Shown here piece after piece: positions 10,093-34,303 of a DNA stretch of 34,665 bases. The stretch is from a virus. Its lineage: Duplodnaviria > Heunggongvirae > Uroviricota > Caudoviricetes. The translations under genes were made by a program, and so were the position numbers. How positions within the stretch are numbered: position 1 is the stretch's first letter; every line of letters begins with the position of its first letter. The notes under the pieces were generated by a model. It did not search any database. It saw only the letters and a list, made by a program, of their open reading frames with translations, and had not been told where the DNA came from. The stretch covers positions 1 to 34,665 of the IMG/VR virus record IMGVR_UViG_2698536302_000011. One strand, written 5' to 3'.

Positions 10093-10572
10093 TCACATGA
10101 GCCTTGTTATGTCTTTTAGACGCGACCAGGTAGTATAAAATTTTTTAAATGTAATAAGCAGGAAAAAAATTCCCACTTGGAGTAATAGTTGGGCATATGT
10201 GTGCTCGTCGGCATCTTTTACTAGTGGGAATTTAAACTTTAGTGTATCAGGGAAAAATAATAAAATGATAAAAATAATACAAACTGATAGTAACCATCCC
10301 ATAGTGGAGTGCATTTCTTCGGTCAGTTTTTTCAAATAACCAGTTTTTCCTATATTTCTAATTAGCGTATTATCTCTAGCTGAAGCAATCAAGGTAAGCG
10401 AACCTAAAACAAAGCCAAATAATATCCCAGAAAATGTAGAAACGGCCGAAGCGATTGGCTGAATTTGTGCAAAATTTAGCTTTGCAGAAAGAGGCCATGC
10501 GATGATACAAAAAACAACAGAGGCTAAATTATAACCATAACTGTACAAAGTTATCAATTTCCCCTTTTTCAT
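10093..10572 (-). CDS. Small four-TM membrane protein; candidate RexB-like effector
   Basis: 159 aa with four hydrophobic helices; immediately downstream of the 304-aa gene (16-bp gap) in low-GC DNA; segment after TM2 'LIASARDNTLIRNIGKTGY' resembles lambda RexB 'LIGSRTRRLAKIREYGY' as I recall it. Confidence 0.45.
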   Translation of the reverse strand: MKKGKLITLYSYGYNLASVVFCIIAWPLSAKLNFAQIQPIASAVSTFSGILFGFVLGSLTLIASARDNTLIRNIGKTGYLKKLTEEMHSTMGWLLSVCIIFIILLFFPDTLKFKFPLVKDADEHTYAQLLLQVGIFFLLITFKKFYTTWSRLKDITRLM

Positions 10573-10587
10573 ACCATCGCTCCAAAA

Positions 10588-11502
10588 TTAATCAACTCTT
10601 TGATTGGCTACTCCAAAGTATGCCTTCAATTCATCATCTTTACTATCTTTTGCAAGAGTTAAGGCGCTCCAAATGCTGCCAACTAATGGATACCTACCTC
10701 CAAGTTCAACATCTGTGTAGTAGACTAATTTGTCTGCTACAAGATCGATAGGATGCTGTACACCGGTCTCAATGTCTTGGGTTTCTAGTTTAAGTTTTTC
10801 AACCTCAAAAGTCTCTAGTGTTTCTTTAAAGGCTCTTTTTAGTTGAGAACCTAGATAGCGAGATTCAGGATCTTCAGAACGACTATCCCCACGTAATGTA
10901 AGATTTACTTTGGCAGAATTAGTACCATTTAGAGTGGCTATCAATGCATTGTTGAAGTTATGTTCAACATCCTCATATAGTTGCACATTCTTTGGCCGAG
11001 CGATACCGATTTCTAGAGTTTTGATTCGAACTTCATTACGCATCAACCACTTTAAACTACTGGTCTGAATGATGGGATTAACAGTTGTATTTTGTGAACT
11101 GTTGGAAAGATATTTACTTAATAGCAACCAGCCATAACAGAGTCTGTTTCGTTGAATTATTAAAACTGAGTCTTGGGTATAAAAATGAAAATAAGCTTTT
11201 TCTAATAAGTTTTCATTGATTTCAAGTTTAATTTCTCTTTCTTCACCTCCGGCTACAGCAACATGAGGGAGATTATTGGTTCTGTGTTTTCCTATAACTC
11301 CCCTGAAACCATAGTCGGTTCTTTCCATGAAGCGCATTTCAACTAGTTTATTTCCTATTTTACGTACAGTTTTGTCTCGGCCTTCGCTGTATGACTCAAA
11401 AATTTTTGAAAAAACAGCTTCAGGTGAATTAACTCCTGCATTTGTATCAGTGCTTATAGTGTGACATTGATAAAAATCGAAGAAAAAGCGCTTGCTAGCC
11501 AT
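10588..11502 (-). CDS. Soluble ~300-aa protein of unknown family; candidate RexA-like sensor
   Basis: 304 aa, no TM segment; first gene of a two-gene leftward operon with the four-TM protein; size and order mirror rexA-rexB; no primary-sequence match I can assert. Confidence 0.4.
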   Translation of the reverse strand: MASKRFFFDFYQCHTISTDTNAGVNSPEAVFSKIFESYSEGRDKTVRKIGNKLVEMRFMERTDYGFRGVIGKHRTNNLPHVAVAGGEEREIKLEINENLLEKAYFHFYTQDSVLIIQRNRLCYGWLLLSKYLSNSSQNTTVNPIIQTSSLKWLMRNEVRIKTLEIGIARPKNVQLYEDVEHNFNNALIATLNGTNSAKVNLTLRGDSRSEDPESRYLGSQLKRAFKETLETFEVEKLKLETQDIETGVQHPIDLVADKLVYYTDVELGGRYPLVGSIWSALTLAKDSKDDELKAYFGVANQRVD

Positions 11503-16296: not shown

Positions 16297-17346
16297 ATGC
16301 TTAATACTGTAAAAATATCCAGTTGTGAGTTAATCAACGCTGATTGCCTGGAGTTTATCCAGACCTTACCGGAAAACTCTGTCGATCTGATAGTCACAGA
16401 CCCGCCATACTTTAAAGTGAAGCCCGAGGGCTGGGATAACCAGTGGGAGGGCGACGATGATTACCTGAAATGGCTGGACCAGTGTCTGGCGCAGTTCTGG
16501 CGGGTACTGAAGCCTGCCGGAAGTCTTTACCTGTTCTGTGGTCATCGCCTGGCATCTGACACCGAAATCATGATGCGTGAGCGCTTTAATGTGCTGAACC
16601 ACATTATCTGGGCGAAGCCGTCCGGACGCTGGAACGGGTGCAATAAGGAAAGTCTGCGGGCGTATTTTCCGGCAACAGAGCGCATTCTGTTTGCAGAACA
16701 TTATCAGGGACCGTATCGCCCGAAAGATGATGGCTATGTGGAGCAGGGGCGCGAGCTAAAACAGCACGTCATGGCCCCGCTGATTTCTTACTTTCGTGAT
16801 GCGCGTAAATCACTGGGAATAACGTCAAAACAGATAGCGGAAGCCACCGGAAAGAAAAACATGGCTTCGCACTGGTTTGGTGCCAGTCAGTGGCAGTTAC
16901 CGAACGAGGGTGATTACAATAAATTGCAGGCGTTGTTTGCGCGTGTTGCGGCAGAAAAACATCAGCGCGGGGAACTGGAAAAGCCACACCACCAGCTGGT
17001 CAGCACATACAGTGAGCTGAACCGGCAGTATACGGAACTGCTGAGTGAATATAAAAATTTGCGGCGGTATTTCGGTGTGACGGCGCAGGTTCCGTACACC
17101 GATGTCTGGACGCATAAACCGGTGCAGTACTATCCAGGGAAACATCCGTGCGAAAAACCGGCAGAAATGCTGCAGCAGATAATCAACGCGAGCAGTCGTC
17201 CGGGAGACCTGGTTGCAGATTTTTTTATGGGTTCAGGTTCAACGGTAAAAGCGGCGATGGCACTGGGGCGTTGTGCGATTGGTGTTGAGCTGGAGACCGG
17301 ACGTTTTGAACAGACAGTCAGGGAAGTTCAGGATTTAATCGTTTGA
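16297..17346 (+). CDS. DNA N6-adenine/N4-cytosine methyltransferase (beta-class; DPPY before FxGxG)
   Basis: 349 aa; motif IV 'DLIVTDPPY' near the N-terminus and motif I 'DFFMGSGST' near the C-terminus. Confidence 0.85.
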   Translation: MLNTVKISSCELINADCLEFIQTLPENSVDLIVTDPPYFKVKPEGWDNQWEGDDDYLKWLDQCLAQFWRVLKPAGSLYLFCGHRLASDTEIMMRERFNVLNHIIWAKPSGRWNGCNKESLRAYFPATERILFAEHYQGPYRPKDDGYVEQGRELKQHVMAPLISYFRDARKSLGITSKQIAEATGKKNMASHWFGASQWQLPNEGDYNKLQALFARVAAEKHQRGELEKPHHQLVSTYSELNRQYTELLSEYKNLRRYFGVTAQVPYTDVWTHKPVQYYPGKHPCEKPAEMLQQIINASSRPGDLVADFFMGSGSTVKAAMALGRCAIGVELETGRFEQTVREVQDLIV

Positions 17347-17395: not shown

Positions 17396-17471
17396 GGCCC
17401 TTTAGCTCAGTGGTGAGAGCGAGCGACTCATAATCGCCAGGTCGCTGGTTCAAATCCAGCAAGGGCCACCA
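17396..17471 (+). tRNA. tRNA with CAU anticodon (Met or lysidine-modified Ile2)
   Basis: Cloverleaf folded by hand: acceptor GGCCCTT/AAGGGCC, D-arm GCTC...GAGC, anticodon loop CTCATAA, T-arm GCTGG-TTCAAAT-CCAGC, encoded CCA. Confidence 0.85.
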
Positions 17472-17478
17472 TCACATA

Positions 17479-17555
17479 CCGCCATTAGCTCATCAGGATA
17501 GAGCGCCAGCCTTCGAAGCTGGTTGCGCGGGGTTCGAGTCCTCGATGGCGGTCCA
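17479..17555 (+). tRNA. tRNA-Arg (anticodon UCG)
   Basis: Acceptor CCGCCAT/ATGGCGG, anticodon loop CTTCGAA, T-loop TTCGAGT, encoded CCA. Confidence 0.85.
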
Positions 17556-17568
17556 TTATCTGTACCCT

Positions 17569-17645
17569 GCGTTGTTAGCTCAGCCGGACAGAGCAATTGC
17601 CTTCTAAGCAATCGGTCACTGGTTCGAATCCAGTACAACGCGCCA
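17569..17645 (+). tRNA. tRNA-Arg (anticodon UCU)
   Basis: Acceptor GCGTTGT/ACAACGC, anticodon loop CTTCTAA, T-loop TTCGAAT, encoded CCA. Confidence 0.85.
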
Positions 17646-20746: not shown

Positions 20747-21241
20747 ATGGATCGAGAGTTAAAAAATCTGACGCTGAATATCAGTCAACTGGCGGCACTG
20801 TCAGGTGTACATCGCCAGACTGCTGCGGCAAGGCTGCAAAATCTACCCGTTGCAGGGGGGCATGAAAGCAACCTCAAGCTTTATCGGGTGGTTGATATTG
20901 TGTCGGCATTTCTGGCATTGCCACCGCCGGTTGCAGAAGGCGAAATGGACGCGCATGAGCGCAAAGCCTGGTATCAGTCTGAACGTGAGCGTCTTAAGTT
21001 CGAACAGGAAACGGCACAACTCATTCCGGCCAGTGATGTCAGACGGGAGTTTGCCATCTGGGCAAAAGCGGTCGTGCAGGTGCTGGAGACATTACCGGAT
21101 ATTCTGGAACGTGACTGCGGTCTGCAGCCTGCCGCTGTGAGCCGTGTTCAGTCCATTATTGATGATCTGCGCGATCAGATAGCCCTGCGGGTGACTGAAG
21201 CAGGTGCGGATGATGAGGAGGAATTACAGCAGGAGGAGTAA
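20747..21241 (+). CDS. nu1: Terminase small subunit (lambda Nu1-like)
   Basis: 164 aa; N-terminal HTH ('LTLNISQLAALSGVHRQT'); immediately upstream of and 1-nt overlapping the large terminase gene; acidic C-terminus. Confidence 0.75.
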   Translation: MDRELKNLTLNISQLAALSGVHRQTAAARLQNLPVAGGHESNLKLYRVVDIVSAFLALPPPVAEGEMDAHERKAWYQSERERLKFEQETAQLIPASDVRREFAIWAKAVVQVLETLPDILERDCGLQPAAVSRVQSIIDDLRDQIALRVTEAGADDEEELQQEE

Positions 21242-23343
21242 TGCTGAATCAGGAAACCGCAAAGGCAGCACGAACCGATTCAGGTTATATCCTTCGCGCA
21301 CCGAGACGAATGCGGGTTGCTGATGCCGTTGCTCAGTATATGCGGGTGCCCATGGGGGCAGGGAACTCAGTCCCGTGGGATCCGCTGGTGGCACCGTATG
21401 TTATTGAGCCGATGAACTGCCTGGCCTCGCGTGAATACGACGCAGTGATATTTGTTGGCCCGGCACGAACCGGCAAGACTATCGGCCTGATTGACGGCTG
21501 GGTGATTTACAACGTGATTTGCGATCCTGCTGATATGCTGATCATTCAGATGACGGAGGAAAAAGCCCGCGAACACTCCAAAAAACGACTCGCCAGAACG
21601 TTTCGCGTCAGCCCGGAAGTGGTCAGTCGCCTGAGTCCGAACAAAAATGACAACAACGTTTATGACAGAACATTCCTTGCTGGTAACTACCTGAAAATCG
21701 GCTGGCCGTCAGTCAATATCATGTCCTCATCAGATTATAAATGCGTCGCGCTGACGGATTATGACCGTTTTCCGGAAGATATTGATGGCGAGGGGGATGC
21801 TTTCTCTCTTGCCTCAAAACGTACCACCACATTTATGTCCAGCGGTATGACGTTGGTGGAGAGTTCCCCCGGCAGGGATGTGAAGGATGTGAAATGGCGA
21901 CGGACTTCACCGCATGAGGCTCCACCAACCACGGGGATCCTGTCGCTCTATAACCGTGGTGATCGCCGTCGCTGGTACTGGCCCTGTCCACACTGTGGTG
22001 AGTATTTTCAGCCCTGCGGCGATGTGGTTGCTGGTTTCCGTGATATTGCCGATCCCGTGCTGGCAAGTGAGGCGGCTTATATTCAGTGTCCTTCCTGTTC
22101 AGGACGGATTATGCCTGAACAAAAACGTGAGCTGAACGGACGTGGGGTCTGGTTGCGGGATGGTGAATCCATCAATGCGGATGGCAGTCGTTATGGTGAT
22201 CCCCGACGCTCACGTATTGCGTCATTCTGGATGGAGGGTCCGGCAGCTGCTTACCAGACACTCTCGCAACTCGTTTACAAACTGCTTACTGCAGAACAGG
22301 AATACGAGACAACCGGAAGTGAAGAAACACTCAGGGCGGTTATCAATACCGACTGGGGATTACCTTATCTTCCCCGCGCCAGCATGGAGCAACGAAAAAG
22401 TGAACTGCTTGAGCAGCGGGCAGAGCCAGTTCTTTCCCGCAGTGTGCCGGATGGCGTTAATTTCCTTGTGGCGACAGTGGATGTGCAGGCGGGACGTCAT
22501 CGCCGTTTTGTGGTTCAGGTAACGGGCTATGGCAGCCGTGGCGAACGCTGGATTATTGATCGTTACAACATCACGCAGTCATTGCGCGGTGACAGCGACG
22601 GGGAGAGCCAGCGAATTGATCCGGCCAGCTATCCGGAAGACTGGGATGTCCTGCTGACGGATGTTTTTCATAAAAGCTGGCCGCTGGCCTCCAATCCTTC
22701 TCAACAAATGCGACTGATGGCAATGGCGGTGGACTCCGGCGGTGAAGACGGGGTCACTGATAATGCCTATAAATTCTGGCGTCGTTGCCGTCGTGATGGC
22801 CTTGGTAAACGTATTTACCTGTTTAAGGGCGACAGCATCCGGCGCGCAAAACTGATCACCCGTACATTCCCTGATAACACCGGACGAACGGGCCGACGGG
22901 CGCAGGCCGCAGGTGATGTGCCGCTCTGGCTTCTTCAGACGGATGCACTGAAAGACCGGGTGAATAACGCGTTATGGCGTGACTCGCCAGGTCCAGGCTA
23001 TGTGCATTTCCCTGACTGGCTGGGGAGCTGGTTTTACGACGAACTGACGTATGAAGAGCGGAGCAGTGACGGGAAATGGAGTAAGCCGGGTCGCGGTGCC
23101 AACGAAGCTTTTGACCTGATGGTGTATGCCGAGGCTCTGGTCATTCTGCATGGATACGAAAAGATCCGCTGGCCGGATGCACCGGAGTGGGCGAGCCGGG
23201 AAACCTGGCTGGAGTGTGTCCAGGACAGTACTGAACCGTCATCCTCACCGGAACCGGTATCCACGCCTGTTAAAAAACAAAAACGGAAGAAAACAGTAAC
23301 TGACGATGTTAACCCCTGGCTGACTTCCGGAGGATGGTTATGA
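21241..23343 (+). CDS. A: Terminase large subunit (lambda gpA-like)
   Basis: 700 aa; Walker-A-like 'VGPARTGKT'; 'WYWPCPHCGEYFQP'; followed by W-like and portal genes. Confidence 0.9.
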   Translation: MLNQETAKAARTDSGYILRAPRRMRVADAVAQYMRVPMGAGNSVPWDPLVAPYVIEPMNCLASREYDAVIFVGPARTGKTIGLIDGWVIYNVICDPADMLIIQMTEEKAREHSKKRLARTFRVSPEVVSRLSPNKNDNNVYDRTFLAGNYLKIGWPSVNIMSSSDYKCVALTDYDRFPEDIDGEGDAFSLASKRTTTFMSSGMTLVESSPGRDVKDVKWRRTSPHEAPPTTGILSLYNRGDRRRWYWPCPHCGEYFQPCGDVVAGFRDIADPVLASEAAYIQCPSCSGRIMPEQKRELNGRGVWLRDGESINADGSRYGDPRRSRIASFWMEGPAAAYQTLSQLVYKLLTAEQEYETTGSEETLRAVINTDWGLPYLPRASMEQRKSELLEQRAEPVLSRSVPDGVNFLVATVDVQAGRHRRFVVQVTGYGSRGERWIIDRYNITQSLRGDSDGESQRIDPASYPEDWDVLLTDVFHKSWPLASNPSQQMRLMAMAVDSGGEDGVTDNAYKFWRRCRRDGLGKRIYLFKGDSIRRAKLITRTFPDNTGRTGRRAQAAGDVPLWLLQTDALKDRVNNALWRDSPGPGYVHFPDWLGSWFYDELTYEERSSDGKWSKPGRGANEAFDLMVYAEALVILHGYEKIRWPDAPEWASRETWLECVQDSTEPSSSPEPVSTPVKKQKRKKTVTDDVNPWLTSGGWL

Positions 23344-23552
23344 ACCAGAATGATATCGAAGCCATGATTCAGCGTTATACGGAAGCTGAAATGGCGGTGC
23401 TGGACGGAAAATCCGTCACTTTTAATGGTCAGCAGATGACCATGGAAAACTTATCTGAGATCCGGCAGGGACGGCAGGAGTGGGAGCGCCGCCTTGCGGC
23501 TCTGATTACACGACGACGGGGGCATCCCGGGTACCGGCTGGCGAGGTTCTGA
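23340..23552 (+). CDS. W: Head-tail joining protein (lambda gpW-like)
   Basis: ~70 aa; pattern similar to lambda W; ATG at 23340 after GGAGG, overlapping the terminase stop. Confidence 0.65.
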   Translation: MNQNDIEAMIQRYTEAEMAVLDGKSVTFNGQQMTMENLSEIRQGRQEWERRLAALITRRRGHPGYRLARF

Positions 23553-25060
23553 TGGCAATTCTTGATGATGTGATTGGCGTTTTTTCACCAGGATGGAAAG
23601 CGGCAAGGCTGCGTTCCCGGGCGGTGATCCAGGCTTATGAGGCCGTAAAAACGACACGGACACACAAAGCCCGGCGGGAAAACCGAACTGCCGACCAGTT
23701 AAGCCAGTACGGGGCCGTGTCGTTACGTGAGCAGGCCCGTTACCTTGATAACAACCACGATCTGGTTATTGGTGTATTTGACAAGCTGGAAGAACGGGTG
23801 GTGGGGAAAAACGGGATTATTGTCGAGCCACATCCGGTATTACGCAATGGGGCCATTGCCCGTGATCTGGCAGCGGAGATACGCACCCGATGGAGTGAAT
23901 GGTCTGTCAGTCCGGAAGTCACCGGGCAGTTTACCCGTCCGATGCTGGAACGTCTGATGCTGCGTACCTGGCTGCGCGATGGTGAGGTGTTTGCCCAGAT
24001 GGTTTCCGGGCGCATAAACAGCCTGACGCCTTCTGCCGGTGTTCATTTCTGGCTGGAGGCGCTCGAGCCGGACTTTATTCCCATGACCAGTGATGAGAGC
24101 AACAGGCTGAATCAGGGCGTGTTTGTTGATGACTGGGGGCGTCCCGAAAAATATCTGGTGTATAAAAGCCGTCCCGTATCCGGGCGGCAGATGGAAACCA
24201 AAGAAGTGGATGCAGAGCGAATGCTGCATCTTAAATTTGTTCGCCGTCTGCACCAGATGCGCGGGACGTCTTTGTTGTCCGGTGTGCTGATCCGCCTCAG
24301 TGCCCTGAAAGAGTATGAAGATTCTGAGCTGACTGCAGCAAGGATCGCCGCTGCTCTGGGGATGTACATCCGGAAAGGCGACGGGCAGAGCTATGAACCG
24401 GATGGTAATGGCAGCAAGGAGAATGAACGCGAGCTTACCATTCAGCCAGGCATTATTTACGACGATCTGAAACCCGGCGAAGAAATCGGAATGGTGAAGT
24501 CGGATCGTCCCAATCCTAACCTTGAAACTTTTCGTAATGGTCAGTTGCGTGCCGTGGCGGCGGGCAGTCGTCTGAGTTTTTCCAGTACGGCACGCAACTA
24601 TAACGGCACTTACAGCGCCCAGCGTCAGGAGCTGGTTGAATCCACTGATGGCTACCTGATCCTGCAGGACTGGTTTATTGGTGCCGTCACCCGCCCGATG
24701 TATCGTGCCTGGCTGAAACAGGCTGTGGCATCCGGTGTTATCAGGCTACCCCGCGATCTTGATCGTTCTTCACTGTATACCGCGGTGTATTCCGGACCGG
24801 TGATGCCGTGGATTGACCCTGTTAAGGAGGCTGAGGCCTGGAAAATTCAGATTCGTGGTGGAGCGGCGACAGAATCAGACTGGGTACGTGCAGGTGGTCG
24901 TAATCCGGATGATGTCAAACGTCGGCGCAAGGCCGAAATTGATGAAAACCGCAAGCTGGATCTGGTATTTGATACCGATCCGGCCAGTGATAAAGGAGGC
25001 AGCAGTGCCGCAACGAAACGACAGGAGCCGCAGCACACCGACGACCAGTCCGAAGAATAA
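23552..25060 (+). CDS. B: Portal protein (lambda gpB-like)
   Basis: ~502 aa; ATG overlaps the W stop (TGATG); position between W and the capsid protease gene. Confidence 0.8.
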   Translation: MAILDDVIGVFSPGWKAARLRSRAVIQAYEAVKTTRTHKARRENRTADQLSQYGAVSLREQARYLDNNHDLVIGVFDKLEERVVGKNGIIVEPHPVLRNGAIARDLAAEIRTRWSEWSVSPEVTGQFTRPMLERLMLRTWLRDGEVFAQMVSGRINSLTPSAGVHFWLEALEPDFIPMTSDESNRLNQGVFVDDWGRPEKYLVYKSRPVSGRQMETKEVDAERMLHLKFVRRLHQMRGTSLLSGVLIRLSALKEYEDSELTAARIAAALGMYIRKGDGQSYEPDGNGSKENERELTIQPGIIYDDLKPGEEIGMVKSDRPNPNLETFRNGQLRAVAAGSRLSFSSTARNYNGTYSAQRQELVESTDGYLILQDWFIGAVTRPMYRAWLKQAVASGVIRLPRDLDRSSLYTAVYSGPVMPWIDPVKEAEAWKIQIRGGAATESDWVRAGGRNPDDVKRRRKAEIDENRKLDLVFDTDPASDKGGSSAATKRQEPQHTDDQSEE

Positions 25061-25073
25061 TTCCTGGTTCAGG

Positions 25074-27032
25074 ATGCAGGCAGGTCACCAGAGTGACGCG
25101 GATATTTATATTTATGACGAGATTGGTTTCTGGGGTGTTACAGCGAAGCAGTTTATCAGTGATCTGAATGCACTGGGCGATATCACCCACATTAATCTCC
25201 ATATTAATTCACCGGGTGGCGATGTCTTTGAAGGCATCGCCATTTTTAATGCACTGAAAACACATGGTGCGTCCATTACCGTTTATGTCGACGGTGTGGC
25301 GGCGTCAATGGCGTCGGTCATTGCGATGGTGGGAAACCCGGTCATTATGCCGGAAAACTCCTTCATGATGATTCATAAACCATTTGGCTTTACGGGCGGT
25401 GATGCGGAGGACATGCGCACCTATGCCGACCTGCTCGATAAAGTTGAGGCGGTTCTCTTACCCGCTTATGCACAGAAAACCGGGAAAACCACCGATGAAA
25501 TTGCTGCCATGCTGGCGGATGAGACCTGGATGTCCGGAGCCGAATGTCTGGCTCATGGATTTGCTGACCAGGTGACGCCAGCGGTTAAGGCAATGGCATG
25601 TATTCAGTCAAAACGTACAGAGGAATTTAAAAAGATGCCGGAATCTATTCGAAACATGATTACTCCGCCACGTAACAGTGCTCCACGCGTACCGGATGAT
25701 GAACCAGCAGCACCCCGGACGCCAGTGCAGGCAGCAGCACCCGTGGTGGATGAAAACAGCATCCGTGCGCAGGTACTGGCAGAGCAAAAAGCGCGTGTAA
25801 ACGGTATTAATGATCTGTTTGCCATGTTTGGCGGGCGTTATCAGGCGCTGCAGGCTCAGTGCCTTGCCGATCCTGAGTGTTCGCTGGAGCAGGCCCGCGA
25901 GAAGCTGTTGAACGAGATGGGGCGAGAGTCCACGCCATCCAATAAAAATACCCCGGCTCATATTTATGCCGGTAACGGTAATTTTGTGGGGGACGGGATC
26001 CGCCAGGCGCTGATGGCGCGTGCCGGATTTGAAAAAACCGAACGTGATAATGTCTACAACGGGATGACCCTGCGTGAATATGCCCGTATGTCACTGACTG
26101 AACGGGGTATTGGGGTTTCCAGTTATAACCCGATGCAGATGGTCGGTGCGGCGTTCACTCACAGTACGTCTGACTTCGGTAATATTCTGCTGGATGTTGC
26201 GAACAAAGCCATTCTGCAGGGCTGGGAAGATGCTCCTGAAACCTATGAACAGTGGACGCGGAAAGGTCAGTTGTCTGATTTTAAAATTGCCCATCGTGTG
26301 GGTATGGGGGGCTTCAGTGCTCTGCGTCAGGTACGTGAAGGGGCGGAATATAAATACGTCACCACCGGAGATAAACAGGCCACTATTGCACTGGCGACCT
26401 ATGGCGAGCTGTTCAGTATCACCCGTCAGGCCATTATCAATGATGATCTGAATATGCTGACCGATGTCCCGATGAAACTGGGCCGTGCGGCGAAATCCAC
26501 TATTGCCGATCTGGTTTATGCCATTCTGACGTCTAACCCGAAAATCTCCACAGATAATGTAAGTCTGTTCGATAAAGCGAAACATGCAAACGTACTGGAG
26601 AGCACTGCAATGGACGTGGCATCGCTGGATAAAGCCCGCCAGTTGATGCGCGTTCAGAAAGAGGGGGAGCGTCATCTGAATATTCGTCCTGCGTTCGTAC
26701 TGGTACCGACGGCGATGGAGTCTGTTGCTAACCAGGTCATTCGCTCCTCAAGTGTCAAGGGGGCTGACATTAACGCCGGTATTATTAACCCGGTGAAAGA
26801 TTTTGCGACCGTTATTGCAGAGCCTCGTCTTGATGATAACAGCCAGACCACCTTCTACCTGGCTGCGTCAAAAGGCTCCGATACAATTGAAGTGGCTTAT
26901 CTCAACGGTGTGGATACGCCATATATTGATCAGATGGAGGGCTTCAGTGTGGATGGCGTGACAACGAAAGTGCGTATTGACGCCGGTGTCGCGCCAGTTG
27001 ATCACCGCGGTCTGGTGAAATGTACGGCGTAA
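25074..27032 (+). CDS. Fused prohead protease (ClpP-like) - scaffold/linker - major capsid protein
   Basis: N-terminal ~200 aa ClpP/S14-like ('IYIYDEIGFWGV...INSPGGDVFEGIAIFNALK...GVAASMASVIAMVG'); Pro/Ala-rich linker; C-terminal ~400 aa capsid-like; single uninterrupted frame of ~652 aa from the ATG at 25074. Confidence 0.7.
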   Translation: MQAGHQSDADIYIYDEIGFWGVTAKQFISDLNALGDITHINLHINSPGGDVFEGIAIFNALKTHGASITVYVDGVAASMASVIAMVGNPVIMPENSFMMIHKPFGFTGGDAEDMRTYADLLDKVEAVLLPAYAQKTGKTTDEIAAMLADETWMSGAECLAHGFADQVTPAVKAMACIQSKRTEEFKKMPESIRNMITPPRNSAPRVPDDEPAAPRTPVQAAAPVVDENSIRAQVLAEQKARVNGINDLFAMFGGRYQALQAQCLADPECSLEQAREKLLNEMGRESTPSNKNTPAHIYAGNGNFVGDGIRQALMARAGFEKTERDNVYNGMTLREYARMSLTERGIGVSSYNPMQMVGAAFTHSTSDFGNILLDVANKAILQGWEDAPETYEQWTRKGQLSDFKIAHRVGMGGFSALRQVREGAEYKYVTTGDKQATIALATYGELFSITRQAIINDDLNMLTDVPMKLGRAAKSTIADLVYAILTSNPKISTDNVSLFDKAKHANVLESTAMDVASLDKARQLMRVQKEGERHLNIRPAFVLVPTAMESVANQVIRSSSVKGADINAGIINPVKDFATVIAEPRLDDNSQTTFYLAASKGSDTIEVAYLNGVDTPYIDQMEGFSVDGVTTKVRIDAGVAPVDHRGLVKCTA

Positions 27033-27055: not shown

Positions 27056-27075
27056 GGCCCGTAAGGGCTTTTTTT
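27056..27075 (+). terminator. Rho-independent terminator after the capsid gene
   Basis: GGCCC-GTAA-GGGC hairpin followed by TTTTTTT. Confidence 0.55.
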
Positions 27076-27118: not shown

Positions 27119-27442
27119 ATGGCAAAGAATTTTGTAGAAGAAGGAAAAACGGTGGCGATTGTTGCCAGTGCAGCCATCAGCAGCGGAGATCTGGTGCAGG
27201 TGGGTGATGTTTTTGCGGTGGCGCTGACCGATATTCCACAGGGTGAAACAGGCGACGGCATGACCGAAGGTGTGTTTATGCTGCCTAAGCTGAAAACGGA
27301 TGACATGAAAACGGGTAAGAAGGTTTATCTGAAGTCCGGAAAAGTTCAGCTGACTAACAGCGGCTCTGATCCGCTGGTCGGGGTTGTCTGGGCAGATGCC
27401 GGAACCAGTGCAGAAGAAGTGCCGGTAAAACTCAATGTCTGA
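27119..27442 (+). CDS. Small head protein (DUF2190-like; possible decoration or head-completion protein)
   Basis: ~107 aa from 'MAKNFVEEGKTV...'; located right after the capsid gene. Confidence 0.4.
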   Translation: MAKNFVEEGKTVAIVASAAISSGDLVQVGDVFAVALTDIPQGETGDGMTEGVFMLPKLKTDDMKTGKKVYLKSGKVQLTNSGSDPLVGVVWADAGTSAEEVPVKLNV

Positions 27443-27710
27443 TCCCTTTTCCCGGCTGGCAGCGCGTATGGATGCGATCACGGTCAGAAAGATGGGAAAG
27501 ACAGCCTCGATTAATGATGTCGATATGACTGTGATCCCGGGAGAAACACTGGCAGAGCTGAATGCTCTGTCCGGACCTGCGGTCTCTCTGGTGGTGTTTT
27601 CTTCGGGATACCGCCCACGGCGCGGGGATCGCGTTGTTTATGACGGACAACAATGGACGGTCACACGGCATGAACGCTTTAACGGTAAGCCAATGATCTT
27701 TATTGAGTAA
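27435..27710 (+). CDS. Head-tail connector protein (FII-position)
   Basis: 91 aa; overlaps the upstream stop; sits between the head genes and the Z-like gene. Confidence 0.4.
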   Translation: MSDPFSRLAARMDAITVRKMGKTASINDVDMTVIPGETLAELNALSGPAVSLVVFSSGYRPRRGDRVVYDGQQWTVTRHERFNGKPMIFIE

Positions 27711-33200: not shown

Positions 33201-33266
33201 GCGGCAGCGGACTTTATGCAACAGCAGGCCCGTGATGGTGGTCGGTTAAGTGGAGCATATCGGTAA
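30210..33266 (+). CDS. H: Tail tape measure protein (lambda gpH-like)
   Basis: ~1018 aa; long Gln/Ala-rich coiled-coil regions; ATG at 30210 with GGAGG upstream (track ORF starts at TTG 30180); position before M. Confidence 0.85.
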   Translation: MDQIANLVIDLGIDAAEFKNEIPRIKNLLNGAASDAERSSARMQRFMERQTQAARQTTQAASSAATAASVHAQTVEKNAQAHERMAREVEKTRQRMEALSQKMREEQAQAMALAEAQDKAAAAFYRQIDSVKQASAGLQELQRIQQQIRQARNSGGIGQQDYLALISEVTAKTRVLTQAEEEATRQKVAFIRQLKEQATRQNLSSSELLRAKAAQLGVSSAAEVYIRKMEQAGKATHSLGLKSAAARQEIGVLIGELARGNLGALRGSGITLANRAGWIDTLMSPKGMMLGGVIGGIAAAVYGLGKAWYDGQKEGEEFNRQLSLTGHYAGVTAGQLWTLSRAISGNGITQHAAAGALAQVVGSGAFRGNDIGMVARAAAQMERSVGQSVSDTINQFKRLKDDPVNAAKALDNELHFLTATQLEQIRVLGDQGRSSDAARIAMSALAEETGRRTADIDNNLNALGSTLKYLSDLWSRFWDAAMNIGREDSLDEQIAALQEKVSRAKRLPWTASSSQVEYDQQRLNDLQEKKRQKDLQDAKEQAERNYQEQQKRRNAENAALNRMNETEAARHQREIARINSMQYADQAVRDAAIQRENERYEKALASGKKKTRETRNDEATRLLLQYSQQLAQVEGQIAAARQSAGIATEKMTEAHKQLLALQQRISDLDGKKLTADEKSVLARKDELIQALMLLDVKQQELQKQTALNDLKKKTIQLTSQLAEEERAQRQQHDLDIATVGMGDQQRQRYQVQLSLRQKYQQQLEQLRRDSEQKGTYNTDDYRKAEQALTESLNRQLNENRRYWQQLEIAQGDWKNGVLRALQNVTENADNTAGTVEQLFTSAFSSMSDWLATFCTTGKLNFKSFTSSVLSDMSRIMAQIALMKAVKGIASALPFDFVANADGGVYQSADLSRYSGTVVNRPTFFAFAKGAGVMGEAGPEAILPLRRGADGKLGVVADIGGSGMAMFAPQYNIEINNDGTNGQIGPAALKVVYDLGKKAAADFMQQQARDGGRLSGAYR

Positions 33267-33595
33267 TGGAGACGTTTCACTGGAAAGTGCGCCCGGATAT
33301 GAATGTGGTATCAGAGCCGAAAGTGGTGACAGTGAAGCTGGGCGATGGTTATGAACAGCGTCGTGCGGCGGGACTGAATAACCAGTTGTCGACTTACAGC
33401 GTGACGATACGTGTTCGTAAATGTGAACACCCATCTTTGAAAGCCTTTCTGGAACGGCACGGTGGCGTCCGCGCATTTCAGTGGATGCCACCTTATGACT
33501 GGAAGCCGATCACGGTGGTTTGTCGTAAATGGTCGGCAAGCGTGGGGGCGCTGTGGGTAACCATAACGGCAGATTTTGAACAGGTCGTGGCATAG
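33266..33595 (+). CDS. M: Minor tail protein (lambda gpM-like)
   Basis: 109 aa; 'FHWKVRPDM...KLGDGYEQRRAAGLNNQLSTYSVT...FLERHGGVRAFQWMPPYDW' aligns to lambda M. Confidence 0.85.
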   Translation: METFHWKVRPDMNVVSEPKVVTVKLGDGYEQRRAAGLNNQLSTYSVTIRVRKCEHPSLKAFLERHGGVRAFQWMPPYDWKPITVVCRKWSASVGALWVTITADFEQVVA

Positions 33596-33604
33596 GAGGC
33601 TCTG

Positions 33605-34303
33605 ATGCAGGATATTCCACAGGAAACACATCATGAGACGACACGCCTTACTCAGTCAGCCCAGGTGGTGCTCTGGGAAATCGATCTGACAGAGGTCGGT
33701 GGTGAACGTTATTTTTTCTGTAATGAGCAGAACGAAAAAGGTGAGCCGGTCACCTGGCAGGGGCGGCAGTATCAGGCATACCCCATTCAGGGGACGGGAT
33801 TTGAACTGAACGGTAAGGGCAGTGCTGCCCGTCCGACACTGACGGTCTCTAACCTGCACGGCATGGTCACCGGGATGGCGGAAGACCTGCAGAGTCTGGT
33901 CGGCGGAACGGTGGTCAGGCGTAAGGTTTACGCCCGTTTTCTGGATGCGGTGAACTTCGTCAACGGAAACAGCGACGCCGATCCGGAGCAGGAGGTGATC
34001 AGCCGCTGGCGCATCGAGCAGTGTAGCGAACTGAGTGCGGTTAGTGCCTCCTTTGTGCTCTCCACACCGACGGAAACGGATGGTGCTGTTTTTCCGGGGC
34101 GCATCATGCTGGCCAACACCTGCACCTGGACCTATCGCGGTGATGAGTGCGGTTATCACGGTCCGGCTGTCGCTGATGAATATGACCAGCCGACGTCCGA
34201 TATCACGAAGGATAAATGCAGCAAATGCCTGAGTGGTTGTAAGTTTCGCAATAACGTCGGCAACTTTGGCGGCTTCCTTTCCATTAACAAACTTTCGCAG
34301 TAA
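33605..34303 (+). CDS. L: Minor tail protein (lambda gpL-like)
   Basis: 232 aa (same length as lambda L); C-terminal Cys cluster 'CTWTYRGDECGY...CSKCLSGC'. Confidence 0.85.
   Translation: MQDIPQETHHETTRLTQSAQVVLWEIDLTEVGGERYFFCNEQNEKGEPVTWQGRQYQAYPIQGTGFELNGKGSAARPTLTVSNLHGMVTGMAEDLQSLVGGTVVRRKVYARFLDAVNFVNGNSDADPEQEVISRWRIEQCSELSAVSASFVLSTPTETDGAVFPGRIMLANTCTWTYRGDECGYHGPAVADEYDQPTSDITKDKCSKCLSGCKFRNNVGNFGGFLSINKLSQ

Follow-up and report, generated by a model that had tools for sequence, protein, structure and literature searches.

A ClpP-like protease and a major capsid domain in one open reading frame of a Gifsy-2-type lambdoid prophage of Escherichia coli

Domain organisation of the fused gene

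The DNA stretch analysed here (34,665 nucleotides (nt), positions 1 to 34,665 of the IMG/VR virus record IMGVR_UViG_2698536302_000011, Caudoviricetes; hereafter the window) is a lambdoid prophage that carries one large protease-scaffold-capsid fusion gene on its plus strand (25005..27032 in its probable full extent, 675 amino acids (aa)), assigned by its matches to NCBIfam NF045540, PHROGs phrog_133 and STM1034.3n of phage Gifsy-2. We are confident that this gene encodes the head shell of a Gifsy-2-type lambdoid prophage of E. coli as a single polypeptide of about 73 kDa that comprises a protease, a tether, scaffold-like helices and a capsid domain. A first-pass annotation of the window had described the frame 25074-27032 as a tripartite capsid gene resembling that of Gifsy-2; the finding is real and its interpretation essentially right, and the family is already known and named. 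The protein is identical to STM1034.3n at 463 of 662 positions (70%), covering residues 1-651 of the 652-aa form, and this full-length identity, together with the synteny across the whole head and tail module, sustains the proposed resemblance.

In the frame that contains 25074-27032 (+), no stop codon occurs between 24804 and the TAA at 27030-27032. Translation from the ATG at 25074 gives 652 aa, as first reported, without interruption through to 27032, while translation from the GTG at 25005 gives 675 aa (73.5 kDa). The residue numbers used below are those of the 675-aa form unless stated, those of the 652-aa form being lower by 23. A rough estimate of the chance of so long an open reading frame (ORF) is (61/64)^652, about 1e-14, and random sequence would not produce one. 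The product scores 984.8 bits against NF045540 (ClpP-like prohead protease/major capsid protein fusion protein), whose cutoff is 475, with residues 32-674 aligned to profile positions 2-651 of 652, and it matches phrog_133 from end to end. The architecture is that of the NF045540 type, i.e., an N-terminal ClpP fold with its Ser and His and a C-terminal HK97-fold capsid domain in one uninterrupted ORF; domain and structure prediction with Pfam, AlphaFold2 and Foldseek found both folds. The AlphaFold2 model was built from the family alignment and has a mean predicted local distance difference test score (pLDDT) of 87.4.

Residues 1-16 form a disordered N-terminus in this model, and they are followed by the ClpP-fold serine protease domain (residues 22-191; 25068..25577, +), which was recognised by Pfam, phmmer, Foldseek and conservation. 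The Pfam family CLP_protease matches residues 23-168 of the 652-aa form with an E value of 3e-36, and in a Foldseek search with the full-length model this domain retrieved ClpP structures (E 6.5e-13), with template modelling (TM) scores relative to the target of 0.75-0.84. In the phmmer alignment to ClpP, the AASM and MIHxP sequences fall on the ClpP Ser and His motifs. The family alignment comprises 91-93 full-length homologues with 34-95% identity to the query, and neither Ser101 (in GVAASM) nor His124 (in MIHKP) varies among them. Position 173, aligned with the catalytic Asp of ClpP, is E in 80 of 91 sequences and D in 7 of 91. The corresponding codons were checked on the plus strand and lie at 25305-25307 (catalytic Ser101), 25374-25376 (His124) and 25521-25523 (the acidic Glu173). 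The family matches, the TM scores of around 0.8 and the invariant Ser and His all agree with the ClpP-like protease domain that had been proposed.

The Pro/Ala-rich linker or scaffold-like region recognised at first sight can now be divided into a disordered part and a helical part. The linker (residues 218-249; 25656..25751, +) was defined by its composition, its length variation and the AlphaFold2 model. Pro and Ala make up 44% of residues 195-226 of the 652-aa form, compared with 16% of the whole protein, and the pLDDT is below 50 at residues 223-245, within this stretch. Depending on the family member, between 23 and 82 residues separate P212 and R264, both conserved, which fits a flexible tether. 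The linker is followed by a helical segment (residues 250-307; 25752..25925, +) directly upstream of the capsid domain, in which three helices are predicted (250-273, 280-288 and 294-307) with a pLDDT of about 90-97, and where R264 and I268 are conserved in the family alignment. We infer a scaffolding role for this segment. It is placed similarly to the delta domain fused to the capsid N-terminus in HK97 gp5, a likeness of position and predicted structure alone.

Between the last of these helices and the capsid domain, the AlphaFold2 model shows a low-confidence junction (residues 308-326, GRESTPSNKNTPAHIYAGNGN; 25926..25982, +), where the pLDDT falls to about 52 at residues 311-320. In the family alignment, P311 is conserved and precedes a variable stretch. 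From the model, this junction appears to be the best candidate region for a maturation cleavage that would free the capsid domain.

The rest of the protein is an HK97-fold major capsid domain (residues 327-675; 25983..27029, +), of about 38-40 kDa depending on the cleavage site. The Pfam family Phage_capsid_4 matches residues 354-649 of the 652-aa form (E 6e-55), and there is also a partial match to Mu gpT. Since ClpP matches filled the fold-search list for the full-length model, the capsid part (residues 311-675) was modelled separately, giving a pLDDT of 91.4 and a predicted TM score of 0.86. A Foldseek search with this model returned HK97-fold proteins only, including encapsulins and the capsids of HK97, D3 and T5, all with probability 1.0. 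By sequence, the capsid part matched solved structures only weakly and in part, namely Mu GpT-domain capsids (E 4e-4). The Pfam and Foldseek matches thus establish the major-capsid-like nature of the C-terminal domain that the first reading had suggested.

Start codon and the question of an internal start

The ATG at 25074, taken initially as the beginning of the gene, is probably not its start codon. The in-frame GTG at 25005, 69 nt upstream, is preceded by the Shine-Dalgarno sequence AAGGAGG (24993..24999, +), which was read in the sequence and lies 5 nt from the GTG. DNA comparison showed that AAGGAGG and the GTG are kept in mEp460, the Stx2d phage and Eeyore, while Pseudomonas phage CF165a, whose protein is 57% identical, has GGAGG and an ATG at the equivalent of GTG 25005. 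In Gifsy-2 and CF165a, the Met of ATG 25074 is replaced by Ile, and thus translation in those phages must begin upstream. A SW[FY] motif just upstream of 25074 is kept in all compared phages with different Ser codons (TCC versus AGC), which points to selection on the protein. The RefSeq coding sequence in a closely related prophage is also the 2028-nt (675-aa) version. These comparisons favour GTG 25005 as the probable start, and a gene beginning there is overlapped by the end of the portal gene (25060) for 56 nt.

A second question of translation is whether the ATG at 25635 (Met211; Met188 in the 652-aa numbering) could serve as an internal start, yielding a second, protease-less scaffold-capsid product in the manner of Nu3 within C. 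Nested in-frame scaffold genes of this kind are established for lambda C/Nu3 (from its annotation), Met211 stands exactly at the end of the protease domain, and stand-alone scaffold and capsid proteins beginning near Met211 do exist (P0226, 468 aa, and P0165, 443 aa). In addition, AGGA(G) lies 9-10 nt before Met211 in the window, the Stx2d phage, Eeyore, Gifsy-2 and CF165a. However, this AGGA can be explained at the protein level, by the conserved Glu/Gln-Glu-Phe codons, and as a Shine-Dalgarno sequence it is weak and its 9-10 nt spacing long when compared with AAGGAGG at the main start. Moreover, in an alignment of 93 sequences a Met is found in the Met211 column only in homologues at least 52% identical, the others having V, A, P, I, T or L, and no column of the scaffold region is rich in Met. 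An internal start at Met211 as a family-wide feature is therefore not supported, the Met being confined to close relatives, and we regard its use as improbable. The corresponding reading for the enterobacterial and Pseudomonas branch, in which the shell would consist mostly of the protease-less product with a minority of protease-bearing subunits, is equally doubtful. If the nested start were true, it would set the protease dose per procapsid.

Family membership, spread and naming

The reading of one polypeptide with all three functions finds further support in the distribution of the gene. At the DNA level, matches were found in 28 phage records, with 98-99% identity over the whole gene in mEp460, cdtI, Ayreon, Tritos, HannyBb, phi458 and others, and about 77% identity in a set of Stx2-converting phages. 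The protein identity to Tritos is 99.2%, and the gene in mEp460, cdtI, Ayreon, Tritos, HannyBb and phi458 differs from that of the window essentially in annotation alone. A tblastn search gave 80 phage records with a match covering at least 80%. The gene is present at a coverage of at least 80% in 2,002 of 5,426 complete E. coli genomes, i.e., more than a third, and one copy, in E. coli strain IrN, is 100% identical. An exhaustive HMMER search against 1.84 billion cluster representatives (of clusters at 50% identity) recovered more than 100 proteins with 36-54% identity, each aligned in a single stretch from about residue 8 to 649.

There is a sister family, NCBIfam NF045541 (prohead protease/major capsid protein fusion protein), which the product matches with 400 bits over residues 220-672. 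Since this score is below the cutoff of 525 and the match excludes the protease part, we place the fusion beside that family and not within it. The scaffold and capsid parts of the NF045541 proteins are homologous to those of the window protein, with the protease part outside the match, and these proteins are likewise encoded by one large gene between the portal gene and a DUF2190/decoration gene. Stenotrophomonas phage S1 gp8 and Synechococcus phage MinM1 gave partial tblastn matches of the NF045541 kind.

The same distribution speaks to the proposal that the single ORF is a sequencing artefact or a pseudogene fusion of separate protease and capsid genes. The uninterrupted ORF recurs in the 2,002 E. 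coli genomes and in the 28 (DNA) or 80 (protein) phage records mentioned above, as well as in Gifsy-2 and in the more than 100 divergent cluster representatives, and a curated NCBIfam model exists for it. This recurrence across E. coli genomes, phages and divergent homologues rules out an artefact, which we hold to be practically negligible as an explanation. Nothing was found in favour of an artefact: no stop codon or frameshift splits the frame, and the comparative data show the fused ORF intact across its relatives.

The gene was annotated as a protease/capsid fusion protein in all 9 sampled records holding it. In GenBank phage records, it goes by at least six product names, namely 'head-tail preconnector protein Nu3', 'head-tail preconnector protease C', 'head maturation protease', 'putative protease/scaffold protein', 'Major head protein' and 'Major Capsid Protein', and public records also differ in its start, which is either the ATG (652 aa) or the GTG (675 aa). 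That the product might be a protease/scaffold protein only, like lambda C/Nu3, with the capsid encoded elsewhere, is what three of these labels (those with Nu3, with head maturation protease and with protease/scaffold) would suggest, but such a product is contradicted by the Phage_capsid_4 match, by the lack of any BLASTP match of the fusion protein to lambda C or Nu3, and by the failure to find a separate capsid gene among the genes examined between portal and tail (fusion, cement and small connector), so that we give it next to no credence.

In a literature search, no cleavage-site or virion-proteomics data were found for the fusion family. A preprint on the cyclic-oligonucleotide-based anti-phage signalling system (CBASS) was considered as a source on the family and ruled out, as it concerns the protease-scaffold fusions of T1-like phages.

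Head and tail module, proposed assembly and significance

The tripartite capsid gene architecture was reportedly described in Gifsy-2 in 2010, in a study by Effantin et al. The gene of Gifsy-2 has the same order of protease, linker/scaffold and capsid in one ORF, and the same neighbours, i.e., an overlapping portal end upstream, and cement, small connector and lambda-like tail genes downstream. Fourteen genes of the module were compared (small terminase (DUF1441), TerL, W-like, portal, fusion, cement, connector, Z, U, V, G, H, M and L), and all 14 have the corresponding Gifsy-2 gene as their best match, in the same order and with 43-70% identity. The differences concern the linker, which in the window is shorter and different in sequence, being the least conserved part, and the start, which in the window is probably a GTG with a strong Shine-Dalgarno sequence rather than the annotated ATG. 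The hosts differ as well, Gifsy-2 being a Salmonella phage and the window prophage belonging to E. coli. The Gifsy-2 capsid has a T=7 architecture, and an automated capsid-gene pipeline did not recover an HK97-fold capsid protein for this phage (PMC8814770). Its trimeric decoration protein sits at the 3-fold axes (PMC8538268).

The portal gene of the window (23552..25060, +) belongs to the lambda-family portals (Pfam Phage_portal_2, E 6e-82), and its product is 64% identical to the Gifsy-2 portal and 23% identical to lambda B. Downstream of the fusion gene, a gene for a head decoration (cement) protein of 107 aa (27119..27442, +; Pfam Phage_cement_2, E 9e-21) encodes a product that is 61% identical to Gifsy-2 STM1034 and that found no match in a sequence search of solved structures. 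Between the fusion and cement genes, the pattern scan and the sequence reveal a terminator-like hairpin (27056..27075, +; GGCCC-GTAA-GGGCT followed by seven T), and the equivalent site in mEp460 is annotated as a rho-independent terminator. Lying inside the late operon, this hairpin might control how much capsid is made relative to downstream products, or might be read through under Q antitermination. A small head-completion or connector gene follows (27435..27710, +; Pfam PF13856 'Gifsy-2', E 1.8e-17), whose product is 45% identical to Gifsy-2 STM1035 and which precedes the lambda-like tail genes Z, U, V, G, T and H; the Pfam families found downstream of it are Minor_tail_Z, Phage_tail_U, the lambda tail tube protein and TAC protein G. 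Pfam describes PF13856 as 'ATP-binding sugar transporter from pro-phage', which, given the position of the gene between head and tail genes, looks like a misnomer.

In comparison with lambda, the head module is of another kind, while the tail genes are clearly homologous. TerL and the portal are placed in the same Pfam families in both phages with 22-24% identity, whereas Z, U, V and M share 49-55% identity with their lambda counterparts and L shares 93%. The arrangement of the lambda genes C, Nu3, D and E is not found in the window, and the fusion protein gave no BLASTP match to the product of any of the four. Lambda C is annotated as an S49 peptidase and the window protease is of the ClpP type; lambda encodes protease and scaffold in one gene and has the major capsid gene E apart from it, whereas in the window all three parts are in one ORF; and the decoration gene is not of the gpD family, its product falling in Phage_cement_2 and giving no BLASTP match to lambda D. 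The 27119-27442 product is nevertheless the functional counterpart of lambda gpD and lies outside the fusion. Hence, the first-pass statement that one frame stands in for separate C, Nu3, D and E genes holds for protease, scaffold and capsid and fails for the role of gpD, which has its own gene. Its further suggestion of a non-lambda head module joined to lambda-like tail genes agrees with the BLASTP results and with the tail gene identities. The same pairing is the norm in the Gifsy-2 group and does not set the window prophage apart.

Similarity to lambda rises sharply in the tail genes at 33266-34303. The M homologue shares 55% identity with lambda M and 61% with that of Gifsy-2, while the next gene, L, shares 93% with lambda L and 66% with that of Gifsy-2. 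This jump points to recent recombination with a lambda-like phage, with a joint near 33.3-33.6 kb.

In HK97, the protease gp4 is encoded by a separate gene, whereas the window protease is fused, and the HK97 protease is not known to have a ClpP fold. The HK97 shell owes its stability to covalent cross-links and lacks a cement protein (PMC8538268), whereas the window module encodes one.

A closely related copy of the prophage in E. coli NCCP 13717 adjoins potC. In this prophage, the closest full-length relative, the large terminase gene is split by the IS66-family element ISCro1 (L006 33030-35645), so that copy is probably defective; the large terminase gene of the window (21241-23343) is intact. 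Elsewhere in the window, three tRNA genes lie in a row at 17396-17645, flanked by a DNA methyltransferase gene (16297-17346) and the lysis genes. One has a CAT anticodon (tRNA-Met according to ARAGORN, but annotated as tRNA-Ile in the related RefSeq prophage), and the other two are Arg-TCG and Arg-TCT. The set resembles the ileZ-argN-argO cluster that precedes stx in Stx phages; the closely related RefSeq prophage has no annotated toxin gene following its tRNA genes. An island of low guanine-cytosine (GC) content at 10093-11502 (-), with a GC of 0.36-0.37 compared with about 0.5 elsewhere, holds two minus-strand ORFs within an otherwise plus-strand early/late region. They encode a 304-aa DUF6731 protein and a 159-aa protein without a Pfam match, and a PADLOC scan of the island genes gave no matches. 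The island looks like an acquired pair of cargo genes, possibly a defence or accessory cassette.

On the basis of the Gifsy-2 work and of general knowledge of HK97 and lambda assembly, the head of the window prophage could be built as follows. About 415 copies would come together on the portal, their capsid domains forming a T=7 procapsid, with the N-terminal protease and scaffold part (about 34 kDa) of every subunit pointing inwards. Roughly estimated, the approximately 415 N-terminal parts would amount to some 14 MDa, which should fit inside a T=7 procapsid. At the resulting high local concentration, the tethered proteases may cut the N-terminal part off each subunit, probably at the junction around residues 308-326 and likely in the linker too, and the fragments would then exit the shell. 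On DNA packaging the shell, by then made of capsid domains that each measure about 38-40 kDa, would expand, and trimers of the 27119-27442 cement protein would secure the 3-fold positions in the manner of gpD in lambda. The autoproteolytic maturation suggested at the outset, i.e., a self-cleavage of the fusion protein, would be part of this scheme by analogy.

Some points tell against assigning the gene this role. In the NF045540-type family, the residue matching the catalytic Asp of ClpP is a Glu, so that any exact catalytic arrangement drawn from ClpP is tentative. The start codon was assigned by comparison with related phages. Finally, we infer the cleavage, its site, the stoichiometry and the capsid geometry from the systems named above, whereas the sequence analysis itself shows the ORF, the three folds, the catalytic residues, the homology and the synteny.

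The locus is an ordinary one, as it belongs to a common, named family in which one member, 70% identical, has been studied experimentally and phages with 98-99% identity have been sequenced. How a shell copes with its own protease on each of about 415 subunits is a question for the whole family and not specific to this locus. The main value of the finding lies in annotation, where product names and start codons are inconsistent and automated capsid finders can miss the gene; once the fusion is recognised for the capsid gene that it is, prophage surveys are spared "missing capsid" calls.

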